Source of the DNA: a virus
Taxonomy: Duplodnaviria; Caudoviricetes
Reading direction: 5' to 3' (one strand)
Virus record (IMG/VR): IMGVR_UViG_3300027772_000043
Location: 1-46,334 of that record
Length of the DNA stretch: 46,334 nucleotides
Part shown: piece after piece, positions 1 to 46,334 of the stretch
Layout: every line of letters begins with the position of its first letter
Numbering within the stretch: position 1 is the stretch's first letter
Notes under the pieces: generated by a model
Database searches by the model: none
Told to the model about the DNA's origin: nothing
Seen by the model: the letters and a program-made list of their open reading frames with translations, nothing else
Made by a program: the position numbers and the translations under genes

Positions 1-175
1 TACCGTATAGCTTTGGCATCAATTGCCTCCTTATCCTTGAATAATTCCCACGCTATCTCCACCTAGTGGATCGTAGGTTAAACTAAAGTTATCTACTGTA
101 TTTCCCGCTCCAGGACTTGCAGACCCTAGCGTGCCGATTATAATACCATGACCTACGGCAGACTGCCAGTCGCTA
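1..175. repeat. Imperfect terminal direct repeat, left copy (matches 46160..46334)
   Basis: Ungapped manual alignment at offset 46159 with about 20 mismatches in 175 nt. Confidence 0.9.
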
Positions 176-1206
176 ACCCCAGAGGCTGTCACCCCAGTGT
201 CTGACACTGAAGTTGTTCCTGTTCCGTCTGTGTACCCAAGCACCCGAAATGTTGCCGAACTTGTAATTACCCTCATATTGCTAAAATAACCGCTGCTGCT
301 TCCTAGGTCAGCGTAGAAAAGGTTGGTAACGTTTGTAGCACTACCCCCTACTATTCGGTCTACTCGCAGGTAGTATTCGTAGCCGTAGTTATTTGTCGTG
401 GTACTTCCGCAGATATTGCAACTGGTTCCGCTCGCTGCGGCGTTGTAGTTTGTTGTGCATCCGCTACAAACTGCCGAGCAGTTCCTGTTAGAACGTCCCG
501 TACTTCCACAACTCCCACCGCAGGTTGTTGAAGAATAACTACATGTAGCACTGCCGCATTTCCTGCTTGTTGAGGAACCTGAGCAAGAAGTTGAACAACT
601 GGTGCTTCCAGAATTCGTACTTCCGCAACTAACTTTATTTCCAGACCCTGAGCAGTTCATTGAAATTCCGCTAGTTACGCTAGTGCAAGATGACCCGCAA
701 GATGCATAGGTGTAAAGAAGATGCGTCCCATTTCCGCCAAGTTCTGCACATGTATACGATGCAGCACTGCATGATCCACTTGAGCAAGAACCACACCCGC
801 TGTAGTTTTGTTCTACGGCTGTGGAGGTTGATTTAGAACACCCTGAAATGTTGGCAACGTTGCACCCACCAAAAGAACAATCAGTACAACTGTTGCAGTT
901 AGTTGTCTGACTGGCAAGGTATCGGTTTGACCTGAGCCAAGCCATCCAAAAATTGGTAGAGTCTTTTACCCAGAATGCTATTCCTGCGCCATTTTGATTA
1001 TTTGTTGACATCAAAATATTAGCGTTGGGCTGACCATTGCTAATCCACGATGGCGATTCAGTAGTGCCGTTGTTCAGCGCAGTATTTGAGTTAATCTGCC
1101 AATTTGATGCGTTCTGCCAAGCCAGCGTAGCGCCAGTTTCCGTAGACCCCAGCGTGCCGACGGCAGTATCTGCGCGTGTGAATGTATCAGAAACTGTAAT
1201 AGCCAT
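31..1206 (-). CDS. Putative virion/fibre-tip protein: beta-sandwich (lectin-like) with a 24-Cys Ser/Thr/Gly-rich insert
   Basis: Last of the fibre-like genes; Cys-free N- and C-terminal halves (DTFTRAD...W..W; GHGI...DNF) flank a Cys-rich segment at 409..897. Confidence 0.6.
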   Translation of the reverse strand: MAITVSDTFTRADTAVGTLGSTETGATLAWQNASNWQINSNTALNNGTTESPSWISNGQPNANILMSTNNQNGAGIAFWVKDSTNFWMAWLRSNRYLASQTTNCNSCTDCSFGGCNVANISGCSKSTSTAVEQNYSGCGSCSSGSCSAASYTCAELGGNGTHLLYTYASCGSSCTSVTSGISMNCSGSGNKVSCGSTNSGSTSCSTSCSGSSTSRKCGSATCSYSSTTCGGSCGSTGRSNRNCSAVCSGCTTNYNAAASGTSCNICGSTTTNNYGYEYYLRVDRIVGGSATNVTNLFYADLGSSSGYFSNMRVITSSATFRVLGYTDGTGTTSVSDTGVTASGVSDWQSAVGHGIIIGTLGSASPGAGNTVDNFSLTYDPLGGDSVGIIQG

Positions 1207-2588
1207 TAGTAGGTTGCTTCAACAGTTACCGAAAGGTCAGCGCCAGATGATCCAGCGCTGACAATTTCAACTTGTAGTGTGTCGCCAACGGCAAGCGATG
1301 TAACCGTGGATAGAGAAGTTGTAACAACTGCAGCGCCCACTGAGGCACTGGTGTTGCCATTTGTTGCGCCGTTTTTTACGAGTCGGTATGTGACCGCAGA
1401 TCCGCCGCCCGCATATGCTAGGGCATTGACAAGTGTGCAAGCAACGGGGGAAATGAACCTCGGCTGCTTAACTCCAGTAGATAGAGTTCCAGCAATGTGA
1501 AATGAGATTGGAATTCTAAGCCCATCAATCTTTGTCTTGTCCGCCGCGCTCATAGAGCCAGCGACAGAGGTTGTTGCTGCCACGATTGTCAAAACGTTTG
1601 AGGTAAGGTCAAGCGGCGCGGTTGCAGTAATGGAACTTGCCCCAGTAAACTGGGTGTAGACTACGTTGTCTGTTCCAATTTTGATTGCGCCAACTGGAAC
1701 AGTTGAAGTCCCTACGGCGGTCATTACAAAGCCGTCGTTTGCGTTTGCCGTTCCGTTTAGACAGAAAACAAAGTCTCCAGCGTTCAACTCACCAGCAGGG
1801 CTGTTGTTTGCGTCGTCGGTTCGGGTAAGAACAAAAGGAGCAGCACCGCTACCAACGGTGGTAACCTTGTAGATTCCATTCTCCGTCTGAGTAGTTTGAT
1901 TTTTGACAAGAATTCGGTCGTTGAGCGCAGCGGAGTATGAGTCAATGCTGATTGCGCCATTAGAGGAGGCGGTTAGTGTCGCTCCGATGCCCAAGCCTCC
2001 GCTCGCATCTGAGGTTCCGTTTGCGTAGGTCGCAGAAAGGTTTGCCGTCGTTGCTGCCTTGACCGCTTCATGGGCGTGAATCCCAGCAGAAATGTTGTCC
2101 GCATACTGTTTTGTTACAGCGTGCATGGCGGTGCTGGGGTCTGTGCCAAGAGTAATCTGGTTAACAGCGGTGTCTCCGCTCGCGTCCCGTAACACGATGG
2201 TGCTTGCAGTCGCGGATGCCGTAGCAGTAGTTTGGTTGTTGAGGACGGTAAGGGTATTGCTGCTGCCGCTGATTGTTTTGTTGGTAAGAGTCTGAGTCTC
2301 TGAAGCGCCAACTACGGCTGTCACACCGTGAGTTGAAGTATCGCCTTCGTGAGTTGTGAGCGCGCCAGCGGCGGTAGCCTCAGCAGCAGACTGAGCGTTG
2401 TTTGCCTTTGTCGTTACGCCGCTAGGGGTGTCAAAAGAATATGACAATGATGTCCAAGTGCTTGAGCCGTTACCAATCTTGATTTTATCGTTTGTGGTAT
2501 CAAGACCAATTTCCCCACTGTTTAGGGTGGGGTTTACTGACGCCCAGTTTGCCGCTGTATCTCGTCGCAACTTGATAATATTTGCCAT
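1206..2588 (-). CDS. Fibre-like structural protein with Mtd_N/hyaluronidase-type N-terminal domain
   Basis: N-terminus IKLRRDTAANWASVNPTLNSGEIGLDTTNDKIKIGNG; central DRILVKNQTTQTENGIY segment typical of phage fibre/head-decoration proteins. Confidence 0.75.
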   Translation of the reverse strand: MANIIKLRRDTAANWASVNPTLNSGEIGLDTTNDKIKIGNGSSTWTSLSYSFDTPSGVTTKANNAQSAAEATAAGALTTHEGDTSTHGVTAVVGASETQTLTNKTISGSSNTLTVLNNQTTATASATASTIVLRDASGDTAVNQITLGTDPSTAMHAVTKQYADNISAGIHAHEAVKAATTANLSATYANGTSDASGGLGIGATLTASSNGAISIDSYSAALNDRILVKNQTTQTENGIYKVTTVGSGAAPFVLTRTDDANNSPAGELNAGDFVFCLNGTANANDGFVMTAVGTSTVPVGAIKIGTDNVVYTQFTGASSITATAPLDLTSNVLTIVAATTSVAGSMSAADKTKIDGLRIPISFHIAGTLSTGVKQPRFISPVACTLVNALAYAGGGSAVTYRLVKNGATNGNTSASVGAAVVTTSLSTVTSLAVGDTLQVEIVSAGSSGADLSVTVEATY

Positions 2589-2590
2589 GG

Positions 2591-3319
2591 CTACTTGAAC
2601 TCCTTCTTTGACCAGAATTGCACCTTGTAGGAATTAAAAATCCTAGTAAGGTGTTTTGAGGTCACTTTGTTCGCTTCTGTAATTTCTGCTTCTCCGCCTA
2701 TTTTCATCTCCCACGATTCTCTTTTGAATGGAATAACCTGAACCATTGGAGTCCCTGCTGGAATAAGACCAGTAAAGTTAGGGTCTATTAAAGTAAACGG
2801 CAAATTTATTTCTTGCGTGTAGGTGTCTGTGTCAACAACCGCAGGAAGGCAGTTAAAGTATCCATTTGAGTTGTGCATCGGAGAGACAATAAGAACAGAA
2901 TAGCCTTGGGGCGTTTTAATCATCCACGGATTGTTGAACTTTGGGACATCCTTGCTCTTGGGAACGGATGGATGTTTTCCTACCTGACCATGAGAGTGAC
3001 TTGTGACCTTAAAGCCGTGTCCGCGTGCAGCGTAGGTCTGGTCATGATCATTTTCTGGAACCTCCACCCACACATCTGAGGGTGTAAACAAAATATAGCC
3101 AGCCGTTATTGCATCTAATACTGGAACGCACTTTTTAATAGTTGCGTTTGGATCTCCGCTTTGGTCGGCTCTCTTTTCCAAGATCACAGATTCTTTGCTA
3201 TTCCCAAATCCGCCATACGACTGCATTTTTGTAAACCACTCTGGAATGTTTTGACTGGCTGGCTTTGGGTAAAACTCTGGGTCAACGTAATGCTTTGAAG
3301 TAAACGTTATGTTTTTCAT
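2591..3319 (-). CDS. Conserved phage protein, dUTPase-like fold (DUF6065-like)
   Basis: Motifs TIKKCVPVLDAITAGY, KFNNPWMIKTPQGYS, AVVDTD, IPAGTPMVQVIPFKR; canonical dUTPase motifs not evident. Confidence 0.55.
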   Translation of the reverse strand: MKNITFTSKHYVDPEFYPKPASQNIPEWFTKMQSYGGFGNSKESVILEKRADQSGDPNATIKKCVPVLDAITAGYILFTPSDVWVEVPENDHDQTYAARGHGFKVTSHSHGQVGKHPSVPKSKDVPKFNNPWMIKTPQGYSVLIVSPMHNSNGYFNCLPAVVDTDTYTQEINLPFTLIDPNFTGLIPAGTPMVQVIPFKRESWEMKIGGEAEITEANKVTSKHLTRIFNSYKVQFWSKKEFK

Positions 3320-3321
3320 TT

Positions 3322-4233
3322 TTATGCTCCCCCTCCGTCAATTGTGACGTTATTTGTGTCTCCCCATGCAGGGTCAGTCCCGTTTGTGGTAAGAAATTTA
3401 CCGCTGTGGCTTGTTTGAACTGGGAGAAGGGCATTGATCGCCTCCCCCACAGTGTCCTGACCAGTGCCTCCATACGCAATCCCGATTGTAGTTCCATTCC
3501 ATGTGCCAGCAGTAACCGTTCCAACAGATGTAAGCGAAGAGGAAACAACAGCGCTGCCAAGTGATGCTGCAGAAAGAACGTCAGTTCCATCAATTTTATA
3601 TGATGCACCAAGGCTTATATCAGCCCCCCCTGAAGTAACCGTAAGACCGTCGTAGAGCGAACTGCCGCCGTTTGCAGTTACCTGAATAACGGCTTTTGTT
3701 CCCCTGTTGCTATTTGTATGGTTCTCTGTGGCATCAAACTTTAGTGAACCACTGTTTGTGCTTGGAAAGTCGCTTGTTCCATATCCTAAAACGCTAACTT
3801 TTCCGAGCGTGTCTCCTGATTGAACTGCGCTTGGTGATGCCGCTGTTCCGCGACTTAGGCGAGTTGCAAAAGTACCGCTCACCCCAGTCCCGTGTGCGTC
3901 TACTAGTGCCGCCGTAGAACTTGAGTCTACGCCGACCGCATGGACTACTGCTCCTGTAACTCCGCCAATCCCAATCGGAGTTGAGGCGTTGTTGTCTACG
4001 GTAAGCGTCCCTCCCACCTTGGGATCTGTCAGTGTTTTGTTTGTAAGAGTTTGAGTCCCCGTGAGGGTGACATCGCCAGAACCAGCGCCGCTTGGAGCAA
4101 GGTCTACCCACGCACCACTGATGCGCGAGTAGACCTTGTTGTCTGTCGTGTCGTAGTAAACGTCTCCGTCTGCTGGGGCGGATGGAGCCGTAGCGTACTT
4201 TGGGAGATTTAATGACGCAGTAAACTTGGGCAT
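3322..4233 (-). CDS. Fibre-like structural protein
   Basis: G/T/S-rich; TQTLTNKTL motif, RGTAASPSAVQSGD motif, and SSLTSVGT..GTWNGT..I.YGGTG block shared with the upstream gene. Confidence 0.7.
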   Translation of the reverse strand: MPKFTASLNLPKYATAPSAPADGDVYYDTTDNKVYSRISGAWVDLAPSGAGSGDVTLTGTQTLTNKTLTDPKVGGTLTVDNNASTPIGIGGVTGAVVHAVGVDSSSTAALVDAHGTGVSGTFATRLSRGTAASPSAVQSGDTLGKVSVLGYGTSDFPSTNSGSLKFDATENHTNSNRGTKAVIQVTANGGSSLYDGLTVTSGGADISLGASYKIDGTDVLSAASLGSAVVSSSLTSVGTVTAGTWNGTTIGIAYGGTGQDTVGEAINALLPVQTSHSGKFLTTNGTDPAWGDTNNVTIDGGGA

Positions 4234-4251
4234 ATAAACCCCCCTTGGTTA

Positions 4252-5409
4252 TTAGCCGATTACGACGATACGGTAATCCCCAGCAACGCTGCACATTACG
4301 GTAATGGTGTTTGTTGTTGCGGTAACAACGTCAGCGATGACGTAGTTATCTGAAGAGTCGTATGCGCTAAACGTTACGTCCTTTGTTCCAAGGTTGTGCG
4401 TAATGGTCTTGGTCTCGCCAGCAGTCCACGTTCCCGTGAATGCATAGCGGGTCATGAAGCCAAGGTTTGTCTTAGCGCCAGCAGCAGTGCCAGAACCAGT
4501 ACCGCCGTCTGCGATAGCGATGTCAGTACCATTCCACACGCCTGTGGTAATCGTCCCAACTGACGTAAGGCTTGAGCCAGTTACCCCAGAGGCGAGCGTG
4601 GTTCCGCTAAGGACTTCCGTGCCATTTACCCTGTATACCTTGCCCGTGAGCAGGTTGAGGTCTTCAGATGAAGTCCACGAATCTGTGGCATCTACCCAGT
4701 TAAACGTCTTGTCGGTTGTACCCTTGAGGGTGATGCCGCCCCCGTCAGCGCCAGCATCCGTTGGGCTTGTGACAGATCCAAGTTCAATGTTCTTATCGTC
4801 AACCGCCACCGTTGTTGAGTTGACCGTTGTGGTTGTTCCGTTGACCGTAAGGTCGCCAGAAAGCACAAGGCTTGTACCTGTTGCTACCCCAATATTTGGC
4901 GTAACAAGGGTTGGGGTGTTGGCAAATACCAGAGCGCCAGTGCCAGTCTCGTCAGAGATGACGCCAGCAAGTTCTGCTGAGGTCGTCGCGGCAAAGACGC
5001 TCAGTTTGTCGGCTGAACTTGCCTTGCCAGCGGCAAGGTCATACGCGGACTTAACCGCAGTAGGCGTTGCGGCGAGGACGCTGCTGGTCGTAGAGGTTGA
5101 GTCGCTAAGGGTTACAGCGCCCTTGACGCTTGTTGTAGCGTCAGCAATGGAGATAGCGGGGGTCGTTCCGCCCGTTGAGGCGATTGCGCCAGTGCCAGTA
5201 ACCGCAGTGACAGTTCCGCCGCCGACTGAAAGAGCAGTCCAAGCAGCCCCGTTGTAGTACTTGAGAACATCAAGAGTCGTGTCGTAGGCGATCTGACCCT
5301 CAACCGCAGGGGAGATCGCGTTGATCTGTGTGGTTGTTAGGTTCTGGATTCGGGCGTTCTGGAGTTCGTTTTGACTGAGGTTAAGATTTGCGAGAAACTT
5401 CGTAGCCAT
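4252..5409 (-). CDS. Fibre-like structural protein
   Basis: Tail-fibre repeat ATTSVKGAVTLSDST..AATPTAVK, GDLTVNGTTTTVNS motif, C-terminal THNLGTKDV domain. Confidence 0.75.
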   Translation of the reverse strand: MATKFLANLNLSQNELQNARIQNLTTTQINAISPAVEGQIAYDTTLDVLKYYNGAAWTALSVGGGTVTAVTGTGAIASTGGTTPAISIADATTSVKGAVTLSDSTSTTSSVLAATPTAVKSAYDLAAGKASSADKLSVFAATTSAELAGVISDETGTGALVFANTPTLVTPNIGVATGTSLVLSGDLTVNGTTTTVNSTTVAVDDKNIELGSVTSPTDAGADGGGITLKGTTDKTFNWVDATDSWTSSEDLNLLTGKVYRVNGTEVLSGTTLASGVTGSSLTSVGTITTGVWNGTDIAIADGGTGSGTAAGAKTNLGFMTRYAFTGTWTAGETKTITHNLGTKDVTFSAYDSSDNYVIADVVTATTNTITVMCSVAGDYRIVVIG

Positions 5410-5418
5410 CGTATCTCC

Positions 5419-5790
5419 TTAATTCAACAATGCTTGCCCTGAGAAAGACCCAGAGAACGTCATGATTATACGGTTATTTGAGAAGTAATTGATTTCTCCA
5501 AAAACAAGACCGCCCGTGCTGTCAATCACCGACACCGAAGGGTAGGCGGCGAGGTTGTGGGTGATGTCCCAAACGCTCGCTGGCACATTTTGGTTGTAGA
5601 CAAAGGTGGCGTGTGAGACTCCAGCAGCCCCAGCAGCGCCCGTGGCTCCCGTAGCACCAGCGGCTCCAGCCACGCCCTGAGCGCCTACCGTGCTGATCGT
5701 TACCGACTGGGCAACTGGGGAGACGATAACCGTTTCATTCTGATCAACGATCTCAACGGTCTGGGTGTTCTGGGTTACGGTGACGCTCAT
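5419..5790 (-). CDS. Small structural protein with a short collagen-like stretch
   Basis: GAQGVAGAAGATGATGAAGAAG followed by WDITHNLAAYPSV domain. Confidence 0.65.
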   Translation of the reverse strand: MSVTVTQNTQTVEIVDQNETVIVSPVAQSVTISTVGAQGVAGAAGATGATGAAGAAGVSHATFVYNQNVPASVWDITHNLAAYPSVSVIDSTGGLVFGEINYFSNNRIIMTFSGSFSGQALLN

Positions 5791-6137
5791 CGCGTGACCT
5801 CTGGCGTGATGACTGCTCCTCCCTCAATGAGACGAGTCACTACCCCTCCAGAAGAGACCAATTCAAGATCGTAGACACCAGTCACTGGCGCTGTAAGCGC
5901 TGCGGTCTGAACTGCAGTAGCCGTCACCGTGATGGTTCCAGCCGCGCCGCCAAGCGCAATGCCGCTGTTGGCTGTCGTAAGCGAAAGCAAAACGGTATCG
6001 GAGGAATGATGCGTCCGAACCGACAGGCGAGCCGTATAACCCGTTAGGTTGATCGCCGTTCCCGACGAATCTTTCCAAGTTGCGACGAGTGAAAGCGTCG
6101 CCCCCTGCTCAATCCTAAGCGTGTATTCGCCAGCCAC
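5787..6137 (-). CDS. Virion structural protein (BppU-N-like Ig-fold adaptor)
   Basis: IEQGAT...INLTGYTARLSVR...GVYDLEL...RLIEG...TPEVTR pattern. Confidence 0.65.
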   Translation of the reverse strand: MAGEYTLRIEQGATLSLVATWKDSSGTAINLTGYTARLSVRTHHSSDTVLLSLTTANSGIALGGAAGTITVTATAVQTAALTAPVTGVYDLELVSSGGVVTRLIEGGAVITPEVTR

Positions 6138-9600: not shown

Positions 9601-12600
9601 AATCTCCCCAGCACCCATCGGAGCGTTCGCGTCGTAATAGTCAACCGTTGCAGGGATCTCAACGACTGTTCGTTGATTCAACTGCTCGTAAGTCACGCCG
9701 TCTTCGCCAAGAGGCGCTGGAACGAGGAGCGTTAACTTCTTCGCAGCAGAAACGGCGACACCAGAATCTTCAAGGGCAATGCTCGCCATTCCGCTTCCAA
9801 GACCGTCGCGCATCCCGTTCAGGGAAGTCCTGCTGCTAACAAGCACTGTCAAAAGATCTGCGTCGTATAACTTCCGTAGCATGGCAACCCGCTGCTCGCC
9901 AAGCACCTGCTCTGGCGTAATGCCGCGCTCCTGAGCAAACTGCATCAAGTCAAGGGCGTCTGCTCCGTTGCTCTCTGCAAACGGGTCTAGTTTTCCTCCG
10001 AATCCAGTGTACTGGGCGTCTTTAACGCCGCCGCCAGTCAGACCATGCACTCCAAACAGCCTTCGGAGGATAAGCAACCGTGGGAGTTGCGGATTTGCAG
10101 CAATGATCCTTTCCGCAACTTCACCAAACACAGTGTTCTTTAGTTTTTCGGCTCTCCACAATGCGAAATCTTCATTCACATCAAGACCAAGGGTCTTTAG
10201 TTTCCTTCGCAACGCAACGGTTTCAACTGAGTTTCTAATTGTGCTGTCAACATCGCTAAACCCGCTCGCCCAGTCAACAATGTCCTCAAACTTCCTGTTT
10301 GAATCACCATAGCGGTTCGTCGCGGTTTCGTATGTCGCCCGCTCCTCATCGGTCAACTGTTCTCCGCGTCGCTTTTTATTGGCGATCAGGATTAACTGAG
10401 GCAAAATAGCATCAGCATCGGCGATAGAGGCTGGCGGCGTCTCCCAGAGGACTACAGGGTCGGCTCCTTCTGCGTTAGGCGTCCTAAGTGACCCGTCCTC
10501 AATGAGTTCCCCAAAGATGTTGAGGTAGAAATTGTCTTTTGGCTTGTACGTCCCAATTCGCTTGTTGAATGGCAGTAATTTTGCTGGATTAAATGCTCCA
10601 GACTTCTGGTAATAGCCAAGAAGTTTCTCTAGATGCGAAAGAAATGGCACTGCGACATCCCTGCTATTGATCGCGGGAGGCAACACAAGCACAGGGACTT
10701 CCGTCTCCCTTGCCAGCCTCCACCCGCCAAGTGCGTAGTGCGTTTTTGTAAGGTTTACGTCGTATACGCCTGTCTTGTTGTGCAGGAAGTTAAAGATATT
10801 ATCTACCCCGACAATCTTACCGTCAGCAGGGATGATTGACTGTGGCGCTGGAGGGTCAACAAGATCGTGCATCTGGAAAATGCGCTTACCGCTGGCGTCA
10901 ACGAGGTCTACAAGATCTGCGCCCCTGCCAGCGTCAATGATTGACTCGCCAGTGTCTGCGTTGTGCTTGAGGATCAGTGCGCGAGCCTCTTCATTGCCGA
11001 TGTATTGACTTAAGTCAAAGACAAGTTGACCGTCTTCGTTTGTGTACCAAACACTCGTGTTGATGGAGTCCTGCGATGTTTCCGTCCTCCCTGCCACTGG
11101 AAGCGTAAAGATGTCGCCAACAGTCCCAAGCGGGATTGACCCCGCGACAGTCGTAGTCAGGCGAGTATCTGGGACGAAGTAATTCATCACGAAGTCATAA
11201 CCGCTGACGCCAAGGGTGAGTGTCCCCGCAGCAATATCTACCTTTGACATATCTACGTTGCCCATTTCACGCATATCCTTAAAGAACAGTGCGCGCTCTT
11301 CTGGGTCGCTTGGGACTCTGATGTTTAGTACAACCTCCCTGTGAAGATCTGCAACGCGAAGCGTCAGATCCTGTACTGGAATGTACTTGCCAATGAACGC
11401 AAAAGAAGTTTTGTACAGGTAGGGATGGATCGGGTTGTCGTCGCCATATCCAAAGCCCTGATTCTGGTCTGGGGTTCCGATTGGGATAGTGATTGTCTGG
11501 TCTGATGGCGTTCTGCCAATTCCATACCCCTGTGCATCGTCGCTGACAATATCCAGCAGTCCCTTGAGCAGAGCAGAAGATCCGTCCCAGCCACCCTTCT
11601 CCTTAAGCAGCAGCGCCCGTGACGCCAGCGCGCTGCCAAGGTCGCCGATAATTCCCTCTGATCCTCGTCGCCCACCGCCAGAAATGAGTTCTGCTGTGTT
11701 CGCCCCGATCTTCTTTCCCTCTGCCATGAGTATTCCGCGAACGATGGACTCGCGCACAACCTTTGGCAAGGCGTCCCACTTCTTTCGGTCAAACTGGAGT
11801 CTGCCGTTTGCCCAAGGCGGGGTGATGTCTTTGTTTGCACCAAAACCGAAGCCGCCTTCATCAGTTCCCAGCACACGATTCCAGTATTCACGCTGGTTCT
11901 CTTGGTTTTTTCTGTCTGAGCCGACAAGTTCTGACAACTGATCGGCAGATAGATCCCCGATTGACTCGTCTGTTGCAACAATCAGCGGGGTAGGTAGGAC
12001 TGTCTTCTCAACTTCGTCAGGGTCAATCAGAACCTTTTTCTTATTCTTCAGTGGCTTTTTCCTGTTCAACTCTCCACGCTGTTCCGCAAGCCAGTTCTGG
12101 AACTCTGCTGCGTCAACAGAAAGTCGTGGCTGGTGCGTTGCAACACTTGGCAGTGGCTTGAGCAGCGCATTGCGCTCTGCAGTGTTTAGGATCTTTGTGG
12201 CGAACCGAATGAATGAAATAAGGCTTGATGGTCGCTGCCTTGTTCGCACATTTCCGATAAGACCGAAACTCTGCTGAATGCCAGCGATGACGTTGAGGGG
12301 CGATACCCCACGACTCACCGTGATGGGCTGCGGTGGGGCTGTTGGGTCTGCCGCGCCACTCAGTGCGGGAGTCGTTGCATCCTGATTGACAAAGAATGTG
12401 TCTACTGCAGCGTCTGATGGGTCGTAGCCGATGTCGTAATCAAAGCCGTTTGGTGGTACTTCTGGAGCGTAAGAGAACGCCTCACCCCCACCACCTCCAG
12501 TCGCAGTGCCAACCATTTCTCCCTGCTGCATCATGGCGAGCATCTCGCCGAATGATCCATCCCCAGCGTCTGGCATTGCGCCAAGGCGATCTGCAATCTC

Positions 12601-13578
12601 TGGCGGGAATGAAGGCACAACCATGCAACGGCAGTTGACTGCGTGCTTGGCTGGAAGGCTTGGATCTTTCGGGAACTGGGCTGAGAACTCGCCCACCATG
12701 AACGACTCGTTGATCGGGATAATCGTCCCATCAAGTGCGGCGTGTTCTGGGCGCGTCCTGTGGTCGCCTACTGCAATCCACTCTTTGTACATGACACCAT
12801 TTGCGTCAAGCATGTAGGAGCGCTGGTCGGTAGAAAGCCCATAGGGATTTGCTGCGAGCGCTTGGATGCCGCTCATGGCTGCAATGTTGCTCACACGCCC
12901 AAACTCTGTTCGGACAATCGCTTCGGCTCGCACTGCAGCAGTAGGGAATGCCCCAATTGGCGTTGCGACAGAAGTCAACCGTGCGATGCTCTCTGCTGGC
13001 GTACTGAGTGCCAGTGAGTTTCTCAAGATCTCTGCCTTAACCGCCTTTTTGAGCGCTCCAACCTGATCAACGATGAGGTCTGGCACAAAAGAAACAGCAA
13101 TGTCTACTGATCTGGCGTCAATGGCGACTAGCCCACGCCCCTGATTTGTAGAGCGACCAATTTCTGGTCTGGCGGAGTCGGTTGACCTGCTCAGTTTGCT
13201 GGCTGCCTTGGAAACTTCGGTGTTGATTTTGTCGGCTTGCTGCTGCGGCATGCCCTTGGACAGAATCTTGACTTCCTCTGCTGCTGCCCGTGCAATGGTG
13301 AGCAGTTTGCTGCGAAGTTCCCCATCCAGACGCTCCAGTGCCGCCAGTTGCTGCTGTGCGCGGCGTACGCGCCACTCAGGGGCTTGATTCGCCTGAATGT
13401 CGGCAAGGATGGCTGCGACCTCTGTTTGAGCCGCATTCATGGCTGTTTGGATCTTTGCTACGGCATCAGACTCAATGGTGATTTGGTTCTGGGCGCGTCG
13501 CAAGAGAGACTCTGCCCATGTGGAGCGAGCCTTAGACGTCTGCCAATTCTGGCGCTGGTTTTCGGTCTGGCTTGGCAA
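6694..13578 (-). CDS. MuF (SPP1 gp7-like) minor head protein fused to a long extension and a C-terminal PI3/PI4-kinase/HipA-like domain
   Basis: MuF motifs AIVRTE, KEWIAVGDHRTRPEH, HAVNCRC near aa 220-320; kinase motifs LGSGSINKP, FIIK, SERAA, LIGNTDRHGGNYL, PIDNGLAF; follows the portal. Confidence 0.85.
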   Translation of the reverse strand: MPSQTENQRQNWQTSKARSTWAESLLRRAQNQITIESDAVAKIQTAMNAAQTEVAAILADIQANQAPEWRVRRAQQQLAALERLDGELRSKLLTIARAAAEEVKILSKGMPQQQADKINTEVSKAASKLSRSTDSARPEIGRSTNQGRGLVAIDARSVDIAVSFVPDLIVDQVGALKKAVKAEILRNSLALSTPAESIARLTSVATPIGAFPTAAVRAEAIVRTEFGRVSNIAAMSGIQALAANPYGLSTDQRSYMLDANGVMYKEWIAVGDHRTRPEHAALDGTIIPINESFMVGEFSAQFPKDPSLPAKHAVNCRCMVVPSFPPEIADRLGAMPDAGDGSFGEMLAMMQQGEMVGTATGGGGGEAFSYAPEVPPNGFDYDIGYDPSDAAVDTFFVNQDATTPALSGAADPTAPPQPITVSRGVSPLNVIAGIQQSFGLIGNVRTRQRPSSLISFIRFATKILNTAERNALLKPLPSVATHQPRLSVDAAEFQNWLAEQRGELNRKKPLKNKKKVLIDPDEVEKTVLPTPLIVATDESIGDLSADQLSELVGSDRKNQENQREYWNRVLGTDEGGFGFGANKDITPPWANGRLQFDRKKWDALPKVVRESIVRGILMAEGKKIGANTAELISGGGRRGSEGIIGDLGSALASRALLLKEKGGWDGSSALLKGLLDIVSDDAQGYGIGRTPSDQTITIPIGTPDQNQGFGYGDDNPIHPYLYKTSFAFIGKYIPVQDLTLRVADLHREVVLNIRVPSDPEERALFFKDMREMGNVDMSKVDIAAGTLTLGVSGYDFVMNYFVPDTRLTTTVAGSIPLGTVGDIFTLPVAGRTETSQDSINTSVWYTNEDGQLVFDLSQYIGNEEARALILKHNADTGESIIDAGRGADLVDLVDASGKRIFQMHDLVDPPAPQSIIPADGKIVGVDNIFNFLHNKTGVYDVNLTKTHYALGGWRLARETEVPVLVLPPAINSRDVAVPFLSHLEKLLGYYQKSGAFNPAKLLPFNKRIGTYKPKDNFYLNIFGELIEDGSLRTPNAEGADPVVLWETPPASIADADAILPQLILIANKKRRGEQLTDEERATYETATNRYGDSNRKFEDIVDWASGFSDVDSTIRNSVETVALRRKLKTLGLDVNEDFALWRAEKLKNTVFGEVAERIIAANPQLPRLLILRRLFGVHGLTGGGVKDAQYTGFGGKLDPFAESNGADALDLMQFAQERGITPEQVLGEQRVAMLRKLYDADLLTVLVSSRTSLNGMRDGLGSGMASIALEDSGVAVSAAKKLTLLVPAPLGEDGVTYEQLNQRTVVEIPATVDYYDANAPMGAGEILLQDTSLPFRAINEVAMQGDAGFTQILRLAVGNQLLGLANAGLFRTLSFRSDARQSPRVSGRLRVTEDQSATELPSFSALSLAKELQSSAKKSALLLADGVARDALNDPLQFEDVLRAVARAAVERGASESDPLIAALLAIPRLQDGSEVVASPFWENKRDFDGATLRMKENPALAGNPHYAKILDTLSATNRRYATRPIDFVDLSALAETIIPMPEQPPTTASPEAMGVFYKERSLAVDARVDLVNRMVQDPSFILRAILSRAYTTDQQRQLMGSLAPFKGQMLKKDASWTTKPVDVSWYELEATLLEIIADEAAKNMPAGASDGTVLSEDAFGTVKMTPELWEATQLLDAYEWDTRLSPDAKAAYDLILAATKDHSEQRQAIIRARIAPIVEALGYQRGTPEFEGILDVYVAHAQGELPTGTILGGDYQADVFIPAVLASINSKLVKFGRRGMSDIPADGAGMAIASKWRKYGRLRNPEADYDEAAPYTPQKLRLVAKAVRDHLVNLQLERQSLARKQIVDALNQNNAELIGGRMKAAEWAAKARKLIRAKRSAIEAEKQRLRILAKGKPIKPVSDELYEETLSLLDKDLEAALKAIPKNKFLGVTDAKLQSEIEQYRDRIDGIMKGVEQTIMGVTTTELVAPNNPKSLGSGSINKPWRGEWDGHKFIIKSLSSMYASDPRSRWGIGKYADLWSERAAQVVDELGGLFIRKAQAYLRELPDIRAGSETLGENTALVMDWLEGFPSGHSSQRNRDPQTADNFDLMSVFEALIGNTDRHGGNYLIAPIPTATQPAFDSDGYPIDPVTRQRTGALWEKYNIVPIDNGLAFPNPEVHLDYAGGNESPFMTSQSGVALTPRAREVLLRLWSNRSELYVRLTTLAGASKTRGFFYRMIWMLRSGEFMGWDTLAGAEYNPLSPNADATIRGAFDEGQSLLDANITSPIIGVREDPNRIEGQIPALPLSGEPQN

Positions 13579-43017: not shown

Positions 43018-44961
43018 TCAGTCCTTTTCTTCAGTCTCGGACTCTTTGATAGCAGCCCTGATGTTTAGTTTACATCCACCCTGCGGTCTAATCAGTCCCT
43101 CAACGATCTCACAACCGTTTGGGCTGACCCAGAACGCGCACGTTGAACACATCCGACCTTCGTAGGCAAAGGGCGAGACGGTGACGTAATTTGCCCCGTC
43201 GCTGCCCTGCTGCGTCCACTTCCCGTGGCGCTTGGCAATGGTCTCGTAAGCGTCGTACAGAGCATTTGCATGGGCTGGCAGCACCATGTTGGCTTCGGCG
43301 AGATTGATCCCGCTGTCACCCATTGGCATATCAATGTGAACCTGATCCGCAACGCCTACTGAGTAGACGCTCTGGAGTTCGGCGCTGCGCTCCGATGGCT
43401 CTGAGGGGATGTCAATGGTCTCGTCTTCTGGCGCTGCGGCGACCTCAACGACAATGTAGTCCCAATAGTCAGATGCCTGTGGGTTCCGCTTGAGAACGTC
43501 TGATTTCTCTTTTTCGCATCCGCAAAGCACCTCAACCCACATGGCGATCAGGTCTTCGTATTCAACTGGCGCAGGAGGGATTCCTGTTGACTCTGGGTCT
43601 ACGGCTTCGTTAAATGACACAATCTTTTCTGCGTTGGTGAGTTCTCTGGGCTTTCCTTCGCTGTCAACCCTTCCGCGAATCTCTATGCGGCTGCGGACTC
43701 CGCGACCTGCTGCGGTTTCCACAAACCCATCCCTCGCGTTGTAAGTTGCAGCCACGACATAGGTGAACTTTGGCTGCGGTGGCTGCCCGTCCGACGATGT
43801 AAACGTCCTCTGCGTTCCTGTTTTAATGTCAATGTCTGGAACGCGCTCAATGATGACTGCCCTATCCCATGAGCGCGTGCTACCGCTGACGCCCTGAATA
43901 ATCGCGGCGTTAGCCTTTATGTGACCATCCGTAACCACCGCATCTGGCACATTGCGTTTAATTTTTGCCGATCCCGTGCTGTCAGTTGTTTTGACCTCAA
44001 TGGCTTTTTTGTTTCTTAGCGCTACTGTGCCGCGAATACCGTCAGTCGGGCTTGTGCCAATTCTTGTGGTGATAAACACGCCAACAACTTCATGGGTGCT
44101 TGATGCGGCGCGATAGATTCCCTCGCGTTTAGCCTGAGTTCCGTCCCCAGTTCCGTCAAAAATGATGTCTCCACCCCTGTGGATGCTTACCTCTAGCGAG
44201 CGCTGGGCGACAACCGCAGACTCCTCGTGGACTCGCGCTGCCGCTGTTACCCGCGCTTTGCTGCCAGTAGTGGTAGGAACCATCCTATCGGCGCGAGCCT
44301 CTTTGTCTGCGCCCCAAATACCGTGCTTGGCATGGTCTGAGTTAATAATTGACGCTGTTCCAGTTGGTCTCAGTGTTGTCGTCCCGTCGTCATTCGGCTT
44401 TAACGCTGGCGATGGAATGCGAACGCCAGCGTCCTCAATTGCGCGGCGCATTGCAATTCCCTCTGGGTCACTGCGATCTTCAAGTTTCTTAAGCACCGTT
44501 GTCTTGCCAGACCCTCCTCCGCCGCCCATGATGACAAGCGTTGGCTTCCCGTCGTCGCGAGCAACCCCGCGCTCGCTGACAAGCGATGGACTCATCACCT
44601 GCCTTGAGACAAGTTGTGTGTGCAGCAACTCCCTTTCCCCCGTTAGTTTGCCTTCAGCAGTGGTGTGCATTGAAAGCGTGCCTTTCGGCTCAGTCGCTTT
44701 GATCGTGCTGATTGCGCTTGTCGTCTTCGCGGGCAAGACGCCTAAATTGAGTGTCTGAATCTGCCCAACGGTACTTGGGTCAGTAGAAACAATGCCAATT
44801 TTTGGGGTCTGAAACAGTGTTGGGTCGCTGTACTCTGCTGCGCCGCCTCCGCCACCCCCACTGCTTCCCGTGCTGCCGAAGCGTCCCTTTTTGTCTCGTG
44901 GCTGTCCAGATGCGTACTCCAGCAGCGCGTGTTCAGCGAGGGCTGCCTGAACTTCTTTCAC
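43018..44961 (-). CDS. Zeta-toxin-like P-loop kinase with N-terminal RDxxGRF motif and C-terminal HiPIP-like Cys motif
   Basis: GGGGSGKTT, IINSDHAK, VHEESA, IIFDGT, RNVP...H; CSTCAFW..CEIVEGLIRPQGGC; GTG start overlaps the upstream TGA. Confidence 0.8.
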   Translation of the reverse strand: MKEVQAALAEHALLEYASGQPRDKKGRFGSTGSSGGGGGGAAEYSDPTLFQTPKIGIVSTDPSTVGQIQTLNLGVLPAKTTSAISTIKATEPKGTLSMHTTAEGKLTGERELLHTQLVSRQVMSPSLVSERGVARDDGKPTLVIMGGGGGSGKTTVLKKLEDRSDPEGIAMRRAIEDAGVRIPSPALKPNDDGTTTLRPTGTASIINSDHAKHGIWGADKEARADRMVPTTTGSKARVTAAARVHEESAVVAQRSLEVSIHRGGDIIFDGTGDGTQAKREGIYRAASSTHEVVGVFITTRIGTSPTDGIRGTVALRNKKAIEVKTTDSTGSAKIKRNVPDAVVTDGHIKANAAIIQGVSGSTRSWDRAVIIERVPDIDIKTGTQRTFTSSDGQPPQPKFTYVVAATYNARDGFVETAAGRGVRSRIEIRGRVDSEGKPRELTNAEKIVSFNEAVDPESTGIPPAPVEYEDLIAMWVEVLCGCEKEKSDVLKRNPQASDYWDYIVVEVAAAPEDETIDIPSEPSERSAELQSVYSVGVADQVHIDMPMGDSGINLAEANMVLPAHANALYDAYETIAKRHGKWTQQGSDGANYVTVSPFAYEGRMCSTCAFWVSPNGCEIVEGLIRPQGGCKLNIRAAIKESETEEKD

Positions 44962-45170
44962 GCCTGTTCCTCCTTGCCCCATTTACCAACGGGGCATTCT
45001 GAATGCGGAAGTGACCCTTTTAGCCGCATAAAGCACCCGCATTTCTTACATTGTTTTGTAATTTTGATAAAAAACTCACAGCCCTTGCAGATTGAAAGGC
45101 GCTTTTCTAGCACCTCTTCAGATACGCGACCGATATTTGGATTAAGCAAATCCCAAGGCTTTGATCCCAT
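44958..45170 (-). CDS. Small six-Cys protein (DUF6171-like)
   Basis: RLSICKGC...QCKKCGCFM..K.....CPVGKW. Confidence 0.7.
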   Translation of the reverse strand: MGSKPWDLLNPNIGRVSEEVLEKRLSICKGCEFFIKITKQCKKCGCFMRLKGSLPHSECPVGKWGKEEQA

Positions 45171-45171
45171 T

Positions 45172-45645
45172 TCAACTCCCCATTACTTGCTGTCCCAGTT
45201 TTGCGCCCATTGCAGCCTGAAACTCTCTTGTCCCAATCCAATGTTTTCCGCCGCTTAGTTCCCAGTACAGATTCTTGTTGTTTACCTTGACGTACTTAAT
45301 AAGCCAAGTGAGAACGTCTGAGCCTATGGTTGCGCCAGCCTCTGTTGCCCTGATGTACGGAATGCCTTCAATAAAGTGTTCGTCAATAATAACATTTGTT
45401 AGTTCTGGCTTTAGCCATTCAGGGATGCTGGTATCCTTAAGCCATAGGCAACTGTAGCCAACGCACGGATCTTTTGGACGATCCTCATAGATCGCGCACC
45501 CCTTTCCGCGCTGGGCAAATTGACACGGAATACCCTGCTGCATCCATTCGCCAAGGATATTGGCAGACAGCCACCCTTCGCAGCACTTTGTGCAAGTGCC
45601 GCAAGATCGTTTTTCTCTTTTAACTATGGGGAGTTGTCGCTTCAC
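45172..45645 (-). CDS. YkgJ-like (CxxCxxCC) cysteine-cluster protein
   Basis: CGTCTKCC...PCQF....CAIYEDRP..PC..YSCLW. Confidence 0.8.
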   Translation of the reverse strand: MKRQLPIVKREKRSCGTCTKCCEGWLSANILGEWMQQGIPCQFAQRGKGCAIYEDRPKDPCVGYSCLWLKDTSIPEWLKPELTNVIIDEHFIEGIPYIRATEAGATIGSDVLTWLIKYVKVNNKNLYWELSGGKHWIGTREFQAAMGAKLGQQVMGS

Positions 45646-46178
45646 TTTGTTGAACGAGAGATTCGGTTTACGGCAAGATCAATGTGATCTTTAAGTCGCT
45701 GCTCAAGTTCATCCATCGCTTCTTGAATTCCAGCAGCAATCTCAGCAGACTGGGAAACAGTATCTCCACACCCAGAGACAGAACCCATTGGCTCGCCATC
45801 ATAGGAGAGACCGCCCTGAGTCTTGTGTGAAGTGGTAAGCCCAAGTTTTTCTTCTAGTTTTGTCCTGAAAGCATCTTCCCACCCAATCGCATCGCCAAGG
45901 ACAATACCATTTTCAGCATAAAAGTACTGGGGATAATTAGAAACATTTGCCGCCTCTCGTAGTGCATCGTTTCTTTCAACATCAATCTGTACAACCTGCA
46001 CGCCGAACGGCTCGTACTTTTTTTCCATTGCCTCAACATATGGGTATGCCTTGGCGCAGAATGAGCAACTTTCGGAACTGAAAAAATACACAGTCGGAAC
46101 TGCGGCATTCTCTTCCAGCAACTTTTCCCACAGACTCTTCCGTACGTTTTCTTCCTTATTCCCGTATACCTTTGGCAT
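45642..46178 (-). CDS. Thioredoxin-fold protein with coiled-coil tail
   Basis: YFFSSESCSFCAK (CxxC), QIDVE, cis-Pro motif NYPQY. Confidence 0.85.
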   Translation of the reverse strand: MPKVYGNKEENVRKSLWEKLLEENAAVPTVYFFSSESCSFCAKAYPYVEAMEKKYEPFGVQVVQIDVERNDALREAANVSNYPQYFYAENGIVLGDAIGWEDAFRTKLEEKLGLTTSHKTQGGLSYDGEPMGSVSGCGDTVSQSAEIAAGIQEAMDELEQRLKDHIDLAVNRISRSTK

Positions 46179-46334
46179 AAATTACCTCCCTATCCTTGAA
46201 TAATTCCGACGCTATCTCCGCCCAGCGGCTCGTAGGTGAGACTAAAGTTATCTACCGTATTGCCCGCTCCAGGGCTTGCAGACCCTAGCGTGCCAACTAT
46301 AATGCCATGCCCTACGGCAGACTGCCAGTCACTA
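46160..46334. repeat. Imperfect terminal direct repeat, right copy; encodes a variant C-terminus of the Cys-insert protein
   Basis: 46190..46334 reads SDWQSAVGHGIIVGTLG...TYEPLGGDSVGIIQG*, two amino-acid differences from the left copy. Confidence 0.9.

Follow-up and report, generated by a model that had tools for sequence, protein, structure and literature searches.

The window analyzed here is the whole 46,334-nt stretch of IMG/VR record IMGVR_UViG_3300027772_000043, from a lake phage; the record is classed as linear and is estimated to be 66% complete. Its two ends carry, on the minus strand, a mobile, swappable fibre module bounded by a kinase gene of the phage backbone (Table 1). The five ORFs that the first-pass annotation had assembled into one cassette, from Cys391 to the kinase, are all present and tightly packed, following each other in gene order with an 11-nt gap, a 4-nt overlap, a 1-nt gap and a 25-nt overlap. 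This order crosses the contig ends and is directly observed in loci L081 and L332, which read through the junction, as does one contig of run X1. The circle on which the genes had been laid out was not clean: the ends have no exact terminal overlap and are identical at 154 of 173 nt, which ruled out a genome circular by terminal repeat. The window ends represent two alleles of the 3′ end of the Cys391 gene and the start of the thioredoxin gene, the second of which is carried by L333.

Table 1. The fibre module and adjoining features of the window.
Feature	Coordinates	Strand	Remarks
First codons of second thioredoxin allele	1..19	-	Left contig end; matches L333
Cys391	31..1206	-	391 aa, 24 Cys, every Cys within residues 104–266
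Mtd_N fibre protein	1206..2588	-	460 aa; directly before Cys391 in mapped family loci
DUF6065-like protein	2591..3319	-	One invariant Cys (C64)
Four further fibre-module genes	3322..6137	-	303, 385, 123 and 116 aa; left portion of the mobile block
Zeta-toxin-type P-loop protein (kinase)	43018..44982	-	Four-Cys HiPIP-like tail; boundary, backbone gene
DUF6171 (PF19668)	44958..45170	-	70 aa, six Cys; right-hand end of module
CxxCxxCC protein	45172..45645	-	157 aa, 8 Cys; phrog_9155 match, E 2e-34; optional member
Thioredoxin-fold protein	45642..46178	-	C38-S-F-C41, Pro83 at cis-Pro position; conserved third Cys137 in G-C motif; helical-looking tail
3′ end of second Cys391 gene allele	46190..46334	-	Right contig end

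At least three relatives with the same backbone lack the whole module, which is thus accessory. L371, which shares the backbone, has a fibre with a single Cys and lacks helper genes before the kinase. The low GC noted previously for the first four genes was confirmed (GC 0.45–0.49 and GC3 0.41–0.49, compared to 40-ORF medians of 0.54 and 0.59), but it is not specific to the cassette: the DUF6065-like gene and two upstream fibre genes share it, so that it marks the larger fibre module. The DUF6065-like gene, absent from the earlier description, is present in all ten Cys391-family loci with room for it; a dUTPase fold for its product is a lead only, from a single match (E 0.84). All helper genes are under purifying selection. 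The module is also present as contigs in two RNA runs, a presence that does not imply transcription. Single-protein scans gave three loci in genomes and four in metagenomes; L334 was a chance match in those scans. On the question of the host, the best capsid match is at 39% only.

Cys391 is a predicted sugar-binding protein: its model shows a β-sandwich of the lectin type (about residues 1–100 and 270–380) into which a 24-Cys antiparallel hairpin (residues 104–266) is inserted. The model has the ConA-like β-sandwich of lectin-fold phage receptor-binding proteins, and could be aligned with the receptor-binding domain of TM4 gp23 (9n6a; Z = 15.7, rmsd 3.9, 179 residues aligned), with CBM66 (4b1m; Z = 14.6) and with a Douge baseplate chain (8zdo; Z = 13.8). 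The flanks of Cys391 share the predicted sandwich with these proteins, but with sequence identities no higher than 12–13% over about 150–180 aligned residues, and the 160-residue cysteine hairpin is unmatched in all three. A Foldseek search with the same model returned no match below E 0.001. The match to TM4 gp23 supports the earlier proposal of a receptor-binding-type tip, and Cys391 is likely a receptor-binding spike or fibre tip. Its position behind the Mtd_N fibre gene, the product of which is the likely carrier of the spike, suggests a virion protein that attaches to the host surface. Equally high scores against the Cys391 model were reached by many lectin domains that are not from phages.

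The number of cysteines in the insert was even in all 28 homologues (24 in 21 of them, 26 in six and 28 in one). However, the background was even as well (18 of 20), so parity alone does not discriminate between disulfides and metal sites, and we dropped it as evidence. More telling are three recurrently variable pairs (112/260, 123/250 and 180/199), whose members were gained or lost together in four events on the tree. The position sums of the variable pairs, 372–379, agree with the antiparallel strand register of the model, which was built from the same alignment as the covariation and in which the pLDDT of the insert is often <60. This paired gain and loss in antiparallel register favors disulfides over Cys4 metal sites. 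The cysteine pattern thus behaves like that of the disulfide-rich ladder originally suggested, and the hairpin is likely zipped by about twelve disulfides.

The gene behind Cys391 encodes a thioredoxin-fold protein that scores 31.6 bits against PF00085 (cut-off 23.5), with no signal peptide and no membrane segment predicted, as would befit a cytoplasmic CxxC shuttle of the type found in the poxvirus relay. It is not a classical reducing TrxA: its active site is CSFC rather than WCGPC, and its TIGR01068 score was 23.3 bits against a cut-off of 96.8. The CxxC, Pro83 and Cys137 are kept in 43 of 43 homologues, with a C-x-[F/Y/H]-C site throughout and CGPC in none. The linkage is strict. In all 11 distinct members of the Cys391 family, across several backbones, the thioredoxin gene lies directly behind the Cys391 gene, and it is tied to this family alone; the independent occurrence that would have argued against a dedicated helper was not seen. 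The family thioredoxin is absent from 71 of 75 DUF6171 representatives, among them many whose cysteine ladders are larger; a ladder can therefore form in its absence. We consider the thioredoxin a likely candidate for a dedicated thiol-disulfide folding helper, probably in the role of an isomerase or protector. TraF/TrbB of F-type pilus assembly and BdbA/BdbB of the sublancin cluster are dedicated thiol-disulfide oxidoreductases acting outside the cytoplasm. The arrangement is similar, with a thioredoxin-fold helper encoded beside its Cys-rich client, and the protein has a weak TraF match (Pfam E 2e-5), but it lacks an export signal and has a third conserved Cys.

The last gene of the module encodes a member of Pfam family DUF6171 (36 bits, gathering cut-off 27), a family for which our literature search found no published function or context. 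Its motif, CxxC-x9-CxxCxC-x12-CP, is invariant in 44 of 44 rows, which were selected by that motif, and R, K, P, K and W residues are likewise invariant. The model is a mixed fold with no structural match (best Foldseek E 7, best VIA-align Z 2.5), which does not imply a new fold, and ESM Atlas matches were to DUF6171 or unnamed clusters only. DUF6171 is present in all ten Cys391-family loci with room for it. Among representatives outside that family, an upstream ORF had ≥8 Cys per 120 aa in 30 of 62, a few of these being HNH-type or wrong-strand ORFs. On the downstream side such an ORF was seen in 3 of 63, and 2 of 32 fibre-anchored controls had one (p = 2e-5; the loci are related by descent, so p values overstate their independence). 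The upstream Cys-rich proteins form 15 clusters. This link between DUF6171 and cysteine-tipped fibres is new here. The dependence is incomplete, however: 21 of 66 representatives have no cysteine-bearing fibre, and in Moby, RHph_Y65, G001 (94% complete) and G002 (65% complete), DUF6171 is present and no ladder protein was found across the whole record, so that the claimed tie to Cys-rich virion genes holds in part, with complete genomes among the exceptions. The DUF6171 end motif occurs in an estimated 1,500 or so IMG/VR stretches.

The remaining two genes of the proposed cassette fared less well. The 45172..45645 product is, by its sequence, YkgJ-like only: the CxxCxxCC motif is present, but PF03692 scored 11.3 bits against a cut-off of 23, and five relatives scored 8.8–10.4. 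The gene occurs in 3 of 11 family members, and a Cys-rich gene lies upstream of it in 3 of 60 outside loci, so we rejected it as a dedicated helper as a rule. The kinase was rejected as a module member altogether. It occurs with the cassette in 1 of 11 members and is kept in six of six same-backbone relatives that lack the cassette there, as expected of a backbone gene. Its tail, fused to a P-loop protein, had a match below the cut-off to NCBIfam Iro (E 8e-5; 22.8 bits, cut-off 100) and no Pfam match.

We propose that the block is a mobile fibre module in which the ladder spike travels with the thioredoxin and DUF6171 as dedicated thiol-handling folding helpers, a reading that we regard as about evenly poised between right and wrong. 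The spike would be synthesized in the cytoplasm with free thiols. The C-x-[F/Y]-C site of the thioredoxin, together with its third Cys, would break wrong pairs and reshuffle them so that the nested ladder closes in register, the oxidizing equivalents being drawn from oxygen, either late in infection or on lysis. DUF6171 would probably have a zinc-ribbon-like core plus one spare Cys pair; it would act as a small redox partner and, of the two helpers, would be the one more widely distributed with cysteine-tipped fibres. The YkgJ-like protein would be an optional add-on and the kinase unrelated. Of the original interpretation, this retains the ladder, the fold, the thioredoxin and the DUF6171 link, and gives up the kinase, the YkgJ-like protein, metal loading as an equal option and the oxidase relay. 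A prediction of the thioredoxin–DUF6171 complex scored 0.03 in two runs (mark 0.32), which speaks neither for nor against. For work in E. coli, the module supplies a client whose cysteine pairing has been mapped by prediction, along with two candidate helpers that are small and soluble. It also places DUF6171 in a context for the first time, and suggests that cysteine-tipped fibres form a large family in lake phages.

Disulfides in tailed-phage virion proteins are on record for Pam3 (PMC9942802), Jabs (bioRxiv 10.64898/2026.07.24.740622), and the gp39 tail tube and Milano (PMC13576161). According to the accessible text of these reports, the bonds are mostly inter-subunit and no catalyst is named, whereas the ladder proposed here would be intrachain, with candidate catalysts encoded next door. 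According to two 2026 papers, phage-encoded disulfide machinery is undescribed or an open question. Our literature search, with subscription journals and bioRxiv supplements outside its coverage, likewise turned up no such machinery encoded by a phage, nor any phage fibre accompanied by a thioredoxin or DUF6171 of its own. A close parallel is the cytoplasmic disulfide pathway of poxviruses, E10R, A2.5L and G4L (PMC9282662). Both systems comprise virus-encoded thiol proteins, one of thioredoxin fold, that likely act on the disulfides of virion proteins synthesized in the cytoplasm. Here, however, the helpers cluster behind a single accessory substrate gene, the backbone can do without them, and DUF6171 has no known fold. 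Neither Erv/ALR nor any other flavin oxidase family was recognized by Pfam among the 46 proteins of the window, a record that may be incomplete, and the poxvirus-like relay of the first-pass annotation is therefore not supported.

Alternatively, the ladder might oxidize by itself after lysis, with DUF6171 and the CxxCxxCC protein supplying metal or electrons to the neighboring oxygenases and DUF6065 proteins, or serving another late function, and only sharing a hypervariable slot with the spike. Published work allows spontaneous oxidation, and the neighborhood of DUF6171 gives this reading some substance: 39 of 66 representatives have a 2OG-oxygenase or DUF6065 gene no more than 3.5 kb away, compared to 2 of 32 controls, a linkage nearly as good as that to Cys-rich fibres. 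GlcNAc transferases, a sulfotransferase and 2OG enzymes are neighbors elsewhere, and the CxxCxxCC protein adjoins DUF6171 in four loci that lack a cysteine fibre in the vicinity (L030, L037, L043 and L076). However, the thioredoxin is left unexplained, the cysteine signal around DUF6171 is confined to the upstream side, a fibre without an oxygenase (10 cases) is commoner than an oxygenase without a fibre (four), and a Pfam scan recognized no 2OG oxygenase in this genome. We consider this explanation unlikely.

A complete cytoplasmic relay, in which DUF6171 forms disulfides de novo in a metal- and O2-dependent manner and passes them on directly or via the thioredoxin, so that the ladder closes in the living cell, is rather unlikely. 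The invariant residues of DUF6171 would suit it, as would its location behind numerous unrelated proteins with cysteine tips, in most cases with no thioredoxin, as expected of a general oxidant. DUF6171 also directly adjoins the thioredoxin in L083, L085 and L094, and in the cultured cyanophage S-IOM18 a fibre-like gene with nine Cys, a CPQC protein and DUF6171 are consecutive, an arrangement that also speaks for our main reading; the CPQC protein, with a weak thioredoxin-profile match (probability 13%) and no Pfam or NCBIfam family, is an analogue of the thioredoxin at best. Against the relay stand the lack of a recognized flavin oxidase in the window, the little room for a cofactor in 70 residues, whose only resemblance in sequence, a weak one, is to zinc-ribbon L32 (E 0.05), and the genomes that have DUF6171 and no evident substrate. 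The bolder notion that DUF6171 is a new miniature metal-based disulfide-forming factor on a thousand or more phage contigs, making up with a client-specific thioredoxin a tailed-phage cytoplasmic oxidative-folding pathway that acts on host-binding spikes with disulfide ladders and that arose independently of the poxvirus relay, is doubtful but not far-fetched; if true, a working 70-residue cytoplasmic disulfide helper would be useful for protein production.

The cysteine-rich hairpin of DnaJ contains nested metal-binding Cys4 sites. By analogy, the Cys391 ladder might bind Zn or Fe in nested sites, with the helpers keeping thiols reduced and delivering the metal. The insert does contain CxxC motifs (104/107/110, 138/141, 247/250 and 263/266), the prevailing count of 24 is a multiple of four, and both small helpers look like metal binders. 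However, all four events on the tree changed the cysteines in twos rather than fours, six homologues stand at 26, and among the even clusters of DUF6171-linked fibres, 15 of 41 are not divisible by four. A metal ladder is thus improbable, and metal loading does not deserve the equal standing it had been given. A mainly disulfide-bonded ladder with one or two metal sites is possible, since the register offers no evident partner for Cys 104, 115, 243 and 247.

Finally, it is very improbable that the cysteines are acceptors for S-glycosylation or thioether cross-links: GlcNAc-transferase genes do neighbor Cys-rich fibres in two loci (L099, where there is a fusion to DUF6171, and L108), and in L130 DUF6171 is followed by a radical SAM/SPASM gene, but no radical SAM/SPASM or glycosyltransferase family was found among the 46 proteins of the partial record, and paired Cys–Cys covariation is not expected for single-site modification.

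All five ORFs that the first-pass annotation had assembled into a redox or metal cassette serving the predicted spike protein Cys391 were found with the motifs ascribed to them, and they are as closely packed as described (11-nt gap, 4-nt overlap, 1-nt gap, 25-nt overlap). The order had been drawn on a clean circle; however, the record is classed as linear and 66% complete, and no exact terminal overlap exists among lengths of 10–399 nt. The window ends align over 154/173 nt, each encoding the end of a Cys gene followed by the start of a thioredoxin, as two alleles. The gene order is nevertheless right, because other contigs bridge the junction: two other loci (L081, L332) hold Cys391, thioredoxin and the CxxCxxCC protein in a single piece, one contig of sequencing run X1 reads from the fibre gene through the kinase, and L333 holds the second thioredoxin allele, with a 96% match to the left window end over 159 nt. 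The two module alleles, whose thioredoxins are 84% identical, co-occur and appear to break the assembly at the window ends. Two RNA-run contigs (X18, X19) join the module to another downstream gene. The low GC reported for four of the genes was confirmed, but extends to the DUF6065 gene and two upstream fibre genes, and so marks a larger fibre module.

Coordinates of features in the window and in other loci (L numbers)
Feature	Locus	Position	Strand
Left-end allele	window	1–175	
Cys391 (391 aa, 24 Cys)	window	31–1206	−
Mtd_N fibre gene	window	1206–2588	−
DUF6065 gene	window	2591–3319	−
MuF-type head protein (2,294 aa)	window	6694–13578	
Kinase (Zeta-toxin-type P-loop protein, HiPIP-like tail)	window	43018–44982	−
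DUF6171 (PF19668)	window	44958–45170	−
CxxCxxCC protein	window	45172–45645	−
Thioredoxin	window	45642–46178	−
Right-end allele	window	46160–46334	
Longer Cys391 homologue	L095	4948–6591	
Interrupted Cys391 homologue	L168/L094	6209–7087	
DUF6171 fusion to GlcNAc-transferase-like protein (PF11397 match)	L099	2407–3834	
DUF6171 fusion to GlcNAc-transferase-like protein	L260	2190–3482	
DUF6171 in frame with 14-Cys fibre protein	L127	404–1363	
DUF6171 relative, Oscillospiraceae	L337	3152–3433	

We compared the window with six relatives that carry the kinase tail and whose capsid proteins are 93–99% identical to its own. The thioredoxin, CxxCxxCC and DUF6171 genes are absent ahead of the kinase in 6/6. 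The whole fibre block is missing at this site in L372, L374 and L375. In L373 two of its genes remain, and the fibre ahead of the kinase in L371 is a different one that contains a single cysteine. The block occurs without the kinase in other backbones (L083–085, L003–004, L094, L095, L098), and contigs from four runs part from the reference where the DUF6171 gene ends. The unit is therefore a mobile accessory fibre module that reaches from roughly position 6137 across the junction as far as 44958. The kinase, previously counted as a cassette member, is backbone; it accompanies the Cys391 family in 1/11 distinct loci. Its tail matches the NCBIfam Iro model at E 8e-5, far below cut-off. Proteins of this type (652–917 aa) lie directly before the capsid gene in the window and in L372–L376, preceded in L374–L376 by a 278-aa paralogue sharing the N-terminal motif, and are possibly head-packaged polymorphic effectors. 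The MuF-type head protein has a weak PI3/PI4-kinase-like (HipA-like) C-terminal domain.

The proposed tie between the thioredoxin and the Cys-rich gene held throughout. Deduplication of the 46 loci with the family left 11 distinct sequences, and the thioredoxin lies directly behind a Cys391-family gene in 11/11; the three family loci without it each end at a contig edge. DUF6171 is present in 10/10 with room for it and DUF6065 in 10/10. By linkage the thioredoxin is strictly dedicated to the Cys391 family, probably as a folding helper. It passes the Pfam Thioredoxin model, fails the TrxA equivalog models, and has no export signal. The active sites of 43 homologues are CNYC (17), CPFC (8), CTFC (5), CKFC (4), CNFC (3) and, once each, CVFC, CHFC, CSFC, CPHC, CQFC and CPYC, with CGPC in 0/43; all 43 retain Pro83 and have a third cysteine, Cys137. 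Glutaredoxins and Dsb proteins typically carry an aromatic residue or histidine just ahead of their second cysteine, which makes the site less reducing; for this thioredoxin that is a lead. The direction in which a thioredoxin works depends on its partners (PMC2689190). No phage thioredoxin dedicated to a fibre was found in the literature searched, which came largely from outside the subscription journals.

Cys391 matches no family in Pfam or PHROG. Its AlphaFold2 model (25 homologues; mean pLDDT 68) is beta-rich; residues 85–104 pair with 268–286 in sequence register, and the insert (residues 104–266) runs on as long strands. The flanks are predicted to form a lectin-type sandwich, with the TM4 gp23 receptor-binding domain (Z 15.7, rmsd 3.9, 179 aligned) and the galactocerebrosidase lectin domain (Z 15.8) tied as matches, followed by CBM66 (Z 14.6) and a Douge baseplate chain (Z 13.8). 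Conservation within the insert reaches 93% for cysteine columns versus 39–54% for G, S, T, N and A, and the cysteine count there is even in 28/28 homologues (24 in 21, 26 in 6, 28 in 1). Columns 112/260 are missing together in the same four homologues, while 123/249–250 and 180/199 are present together in the same nine and the same two; these three variable pairs represent four events on the tree, every one paired. Their position sums (372, 373, 379) agree with the possible pairs 107/266, 110/263, 170/208, 174/204 and 185/194. A longer subfamily has a Cys-free repeat of about 100–150 residues mid-ladder, as expected for a hairpin tip. We infer that disulfides close the insert as a nested ladder. 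Four cysteines (104, 115, 243 and 247) lie outside the simple register and could pair crosswise, bond to another chain or form one metal site. The repeat of the longer subfamily (L095, L098, L186, L187) is of the GGNxK / YNAxSY type. In the L168/L094 homologue the reading frame ends after 292 aa and a 79-aa piece comes next, reflecting a broken gene or an assembly error.

DUF6171 loci were collected in two scans, the second taking the best 80 of about 1,500 estimated end-motif stretches, and the 158 loci were reduced to 75 representatives, 71 of which lack the family thioredoxin. Removal of this family's four and of those with <1.5 kb upstream left 62. A Cys-rich ORF, with at least 8 Cys in 120 residues and its end no more than 3.5 kb away, lies upstream in 30/62 (21 of them reach 10 or more Cys), compared to 3/63 downstream and 2/32 in controls. 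The controls were drawn from 72 loci built around an Mtd_N fibre gene, after removal of duplicates, short loci and members of this family. Under a looser rule (fibre-like protein, at least 4 clustered Cys), the counts were 40/62 and 7/32. The upstream proteins form 15 BLAST clusters, including one chain-linked cluster of 22; among them are lectin-like scaffolds bearing different ladders, fn3 proteins, and stalks rich in proline and tipped by a small Cys knot. In the cultured phage S-IOM18, a fibre-like gene (9 Cys), a CPQC protein and DUF6171 stand in a row, and in a Leptospira phage a 12-Cys ORF immediately precedes DUF6171. The suggested tie to Cys-rich genes stands as an association but not as a rule: DUF6171 sits among small non-structural genes in Moby and RHph_Y65, and no ladder protein was found anywhere in these or in two further DUF6171-bearing phage genomes (G001, G002). 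DUF6171 is a candidate helper broadly, not exclusively, associated with Cys-rich fibre-like genes. Its model (pLDDT 79) gave no fold match; the CxxC-x9-CxxC spacing weakly resembles zinc-ribbon L32, and C46 and C59 are possibly a spare Cys pair. No paper on DUF6171 was found in the same literature. In L099 and L260, DUF6171 forms the C-terminal end of a fusion with a GlcNAc-transferase-like protein. The L127 frame, two genes in its near relative L104, is a natural fusion or an assembly deletion. The L337 relative lies behind an arabinofuranosidase-like gene, a non-phage setting.

The CxxCxxCC protein matches phrog_9155 and scores below cut-off for PF03692. It had been proposed as a spike helper, but occurs in 3/11 distinct family loci, and among 60 outside loci a Cys-rich gene lies upstream in 3 and DUF6171 is in the locus in 11; it roams with DUF6171, not with the spike. 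In one lineage, the two genes stand side by side on the strand opposite the structural genes. One or both occupy a variable slot there, with no Cys fibre near, in L030, L037, L043 (two DUF6171 copies), L076, L020, L281, L282, L297 and L313.

The cassette of the first-pass annotation is thus a real and mobile module, narrower than claimed, with one strictly dedicated and one broadly associated putative helper. We consider it about an even bet that the module provides dedicated thiol handling, in catalytic steps that we infer: the thioredoxin would guard the spike thiols and reshuffle pairs so that the non-consecutive ladder closes in register, oxygen would drive oxidation late in infection or at lysis, and DUF6171 would be a small redox partner. 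Considerably less probable is that the genes hitch-hike in a tailoring island while the ladder oxidizes spontaneously; of 66 DUF6171 representatives, 35 have both a Cys fibre and a 2OG oxygenase or DUF6065 gene nearby, 10 the fibre only, 4 the oxygenase or DUF6065 only, and 17 neither. Slightly less probable again is a full de novo oxidation relay. In poxviruses, cytoplasmic disulfides require E10R (Erv/ALR), A2.5L and G4L (PMC9282662); no Erv/ALR oxidase was found among the 46 window proteins scanned, which leaves a relay of that kind unsupported. A ladder of metal-binding cysteines is improbable, and some other sulfur modification of the cysteines very improbable. Virion disulfides are established for the tailed phages Pam3 (PMC9942802) and Jabs (bioRxiv 10.64898/2026.07.24.740622). 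The module allows a direct test of a question stated in print as open.

DUF6065-like proteins occur in one to three copies around Cys-tipped fibres (window, L093, L095, L099, L101, L109, L116). They have one invariant cysteine (KxC motif) and a weak likeness to trimeric dUTPase (E 0.84), and are possibly fibre chaperones or thiol enzymes. Other lake-phage fibres carry long proline repeats (PT, PPHFPPFF, PV) with a 4–22 Cys knot at the end (L111, L116, L119, L128, L134, L274, L285, L305–L329). They are flanked by 2OG-Fe(II) oxygenase, GlcNAc transferase and sulfotransferase genes, and look like prolyl-hydroxylated and glycosylated virion stalks.
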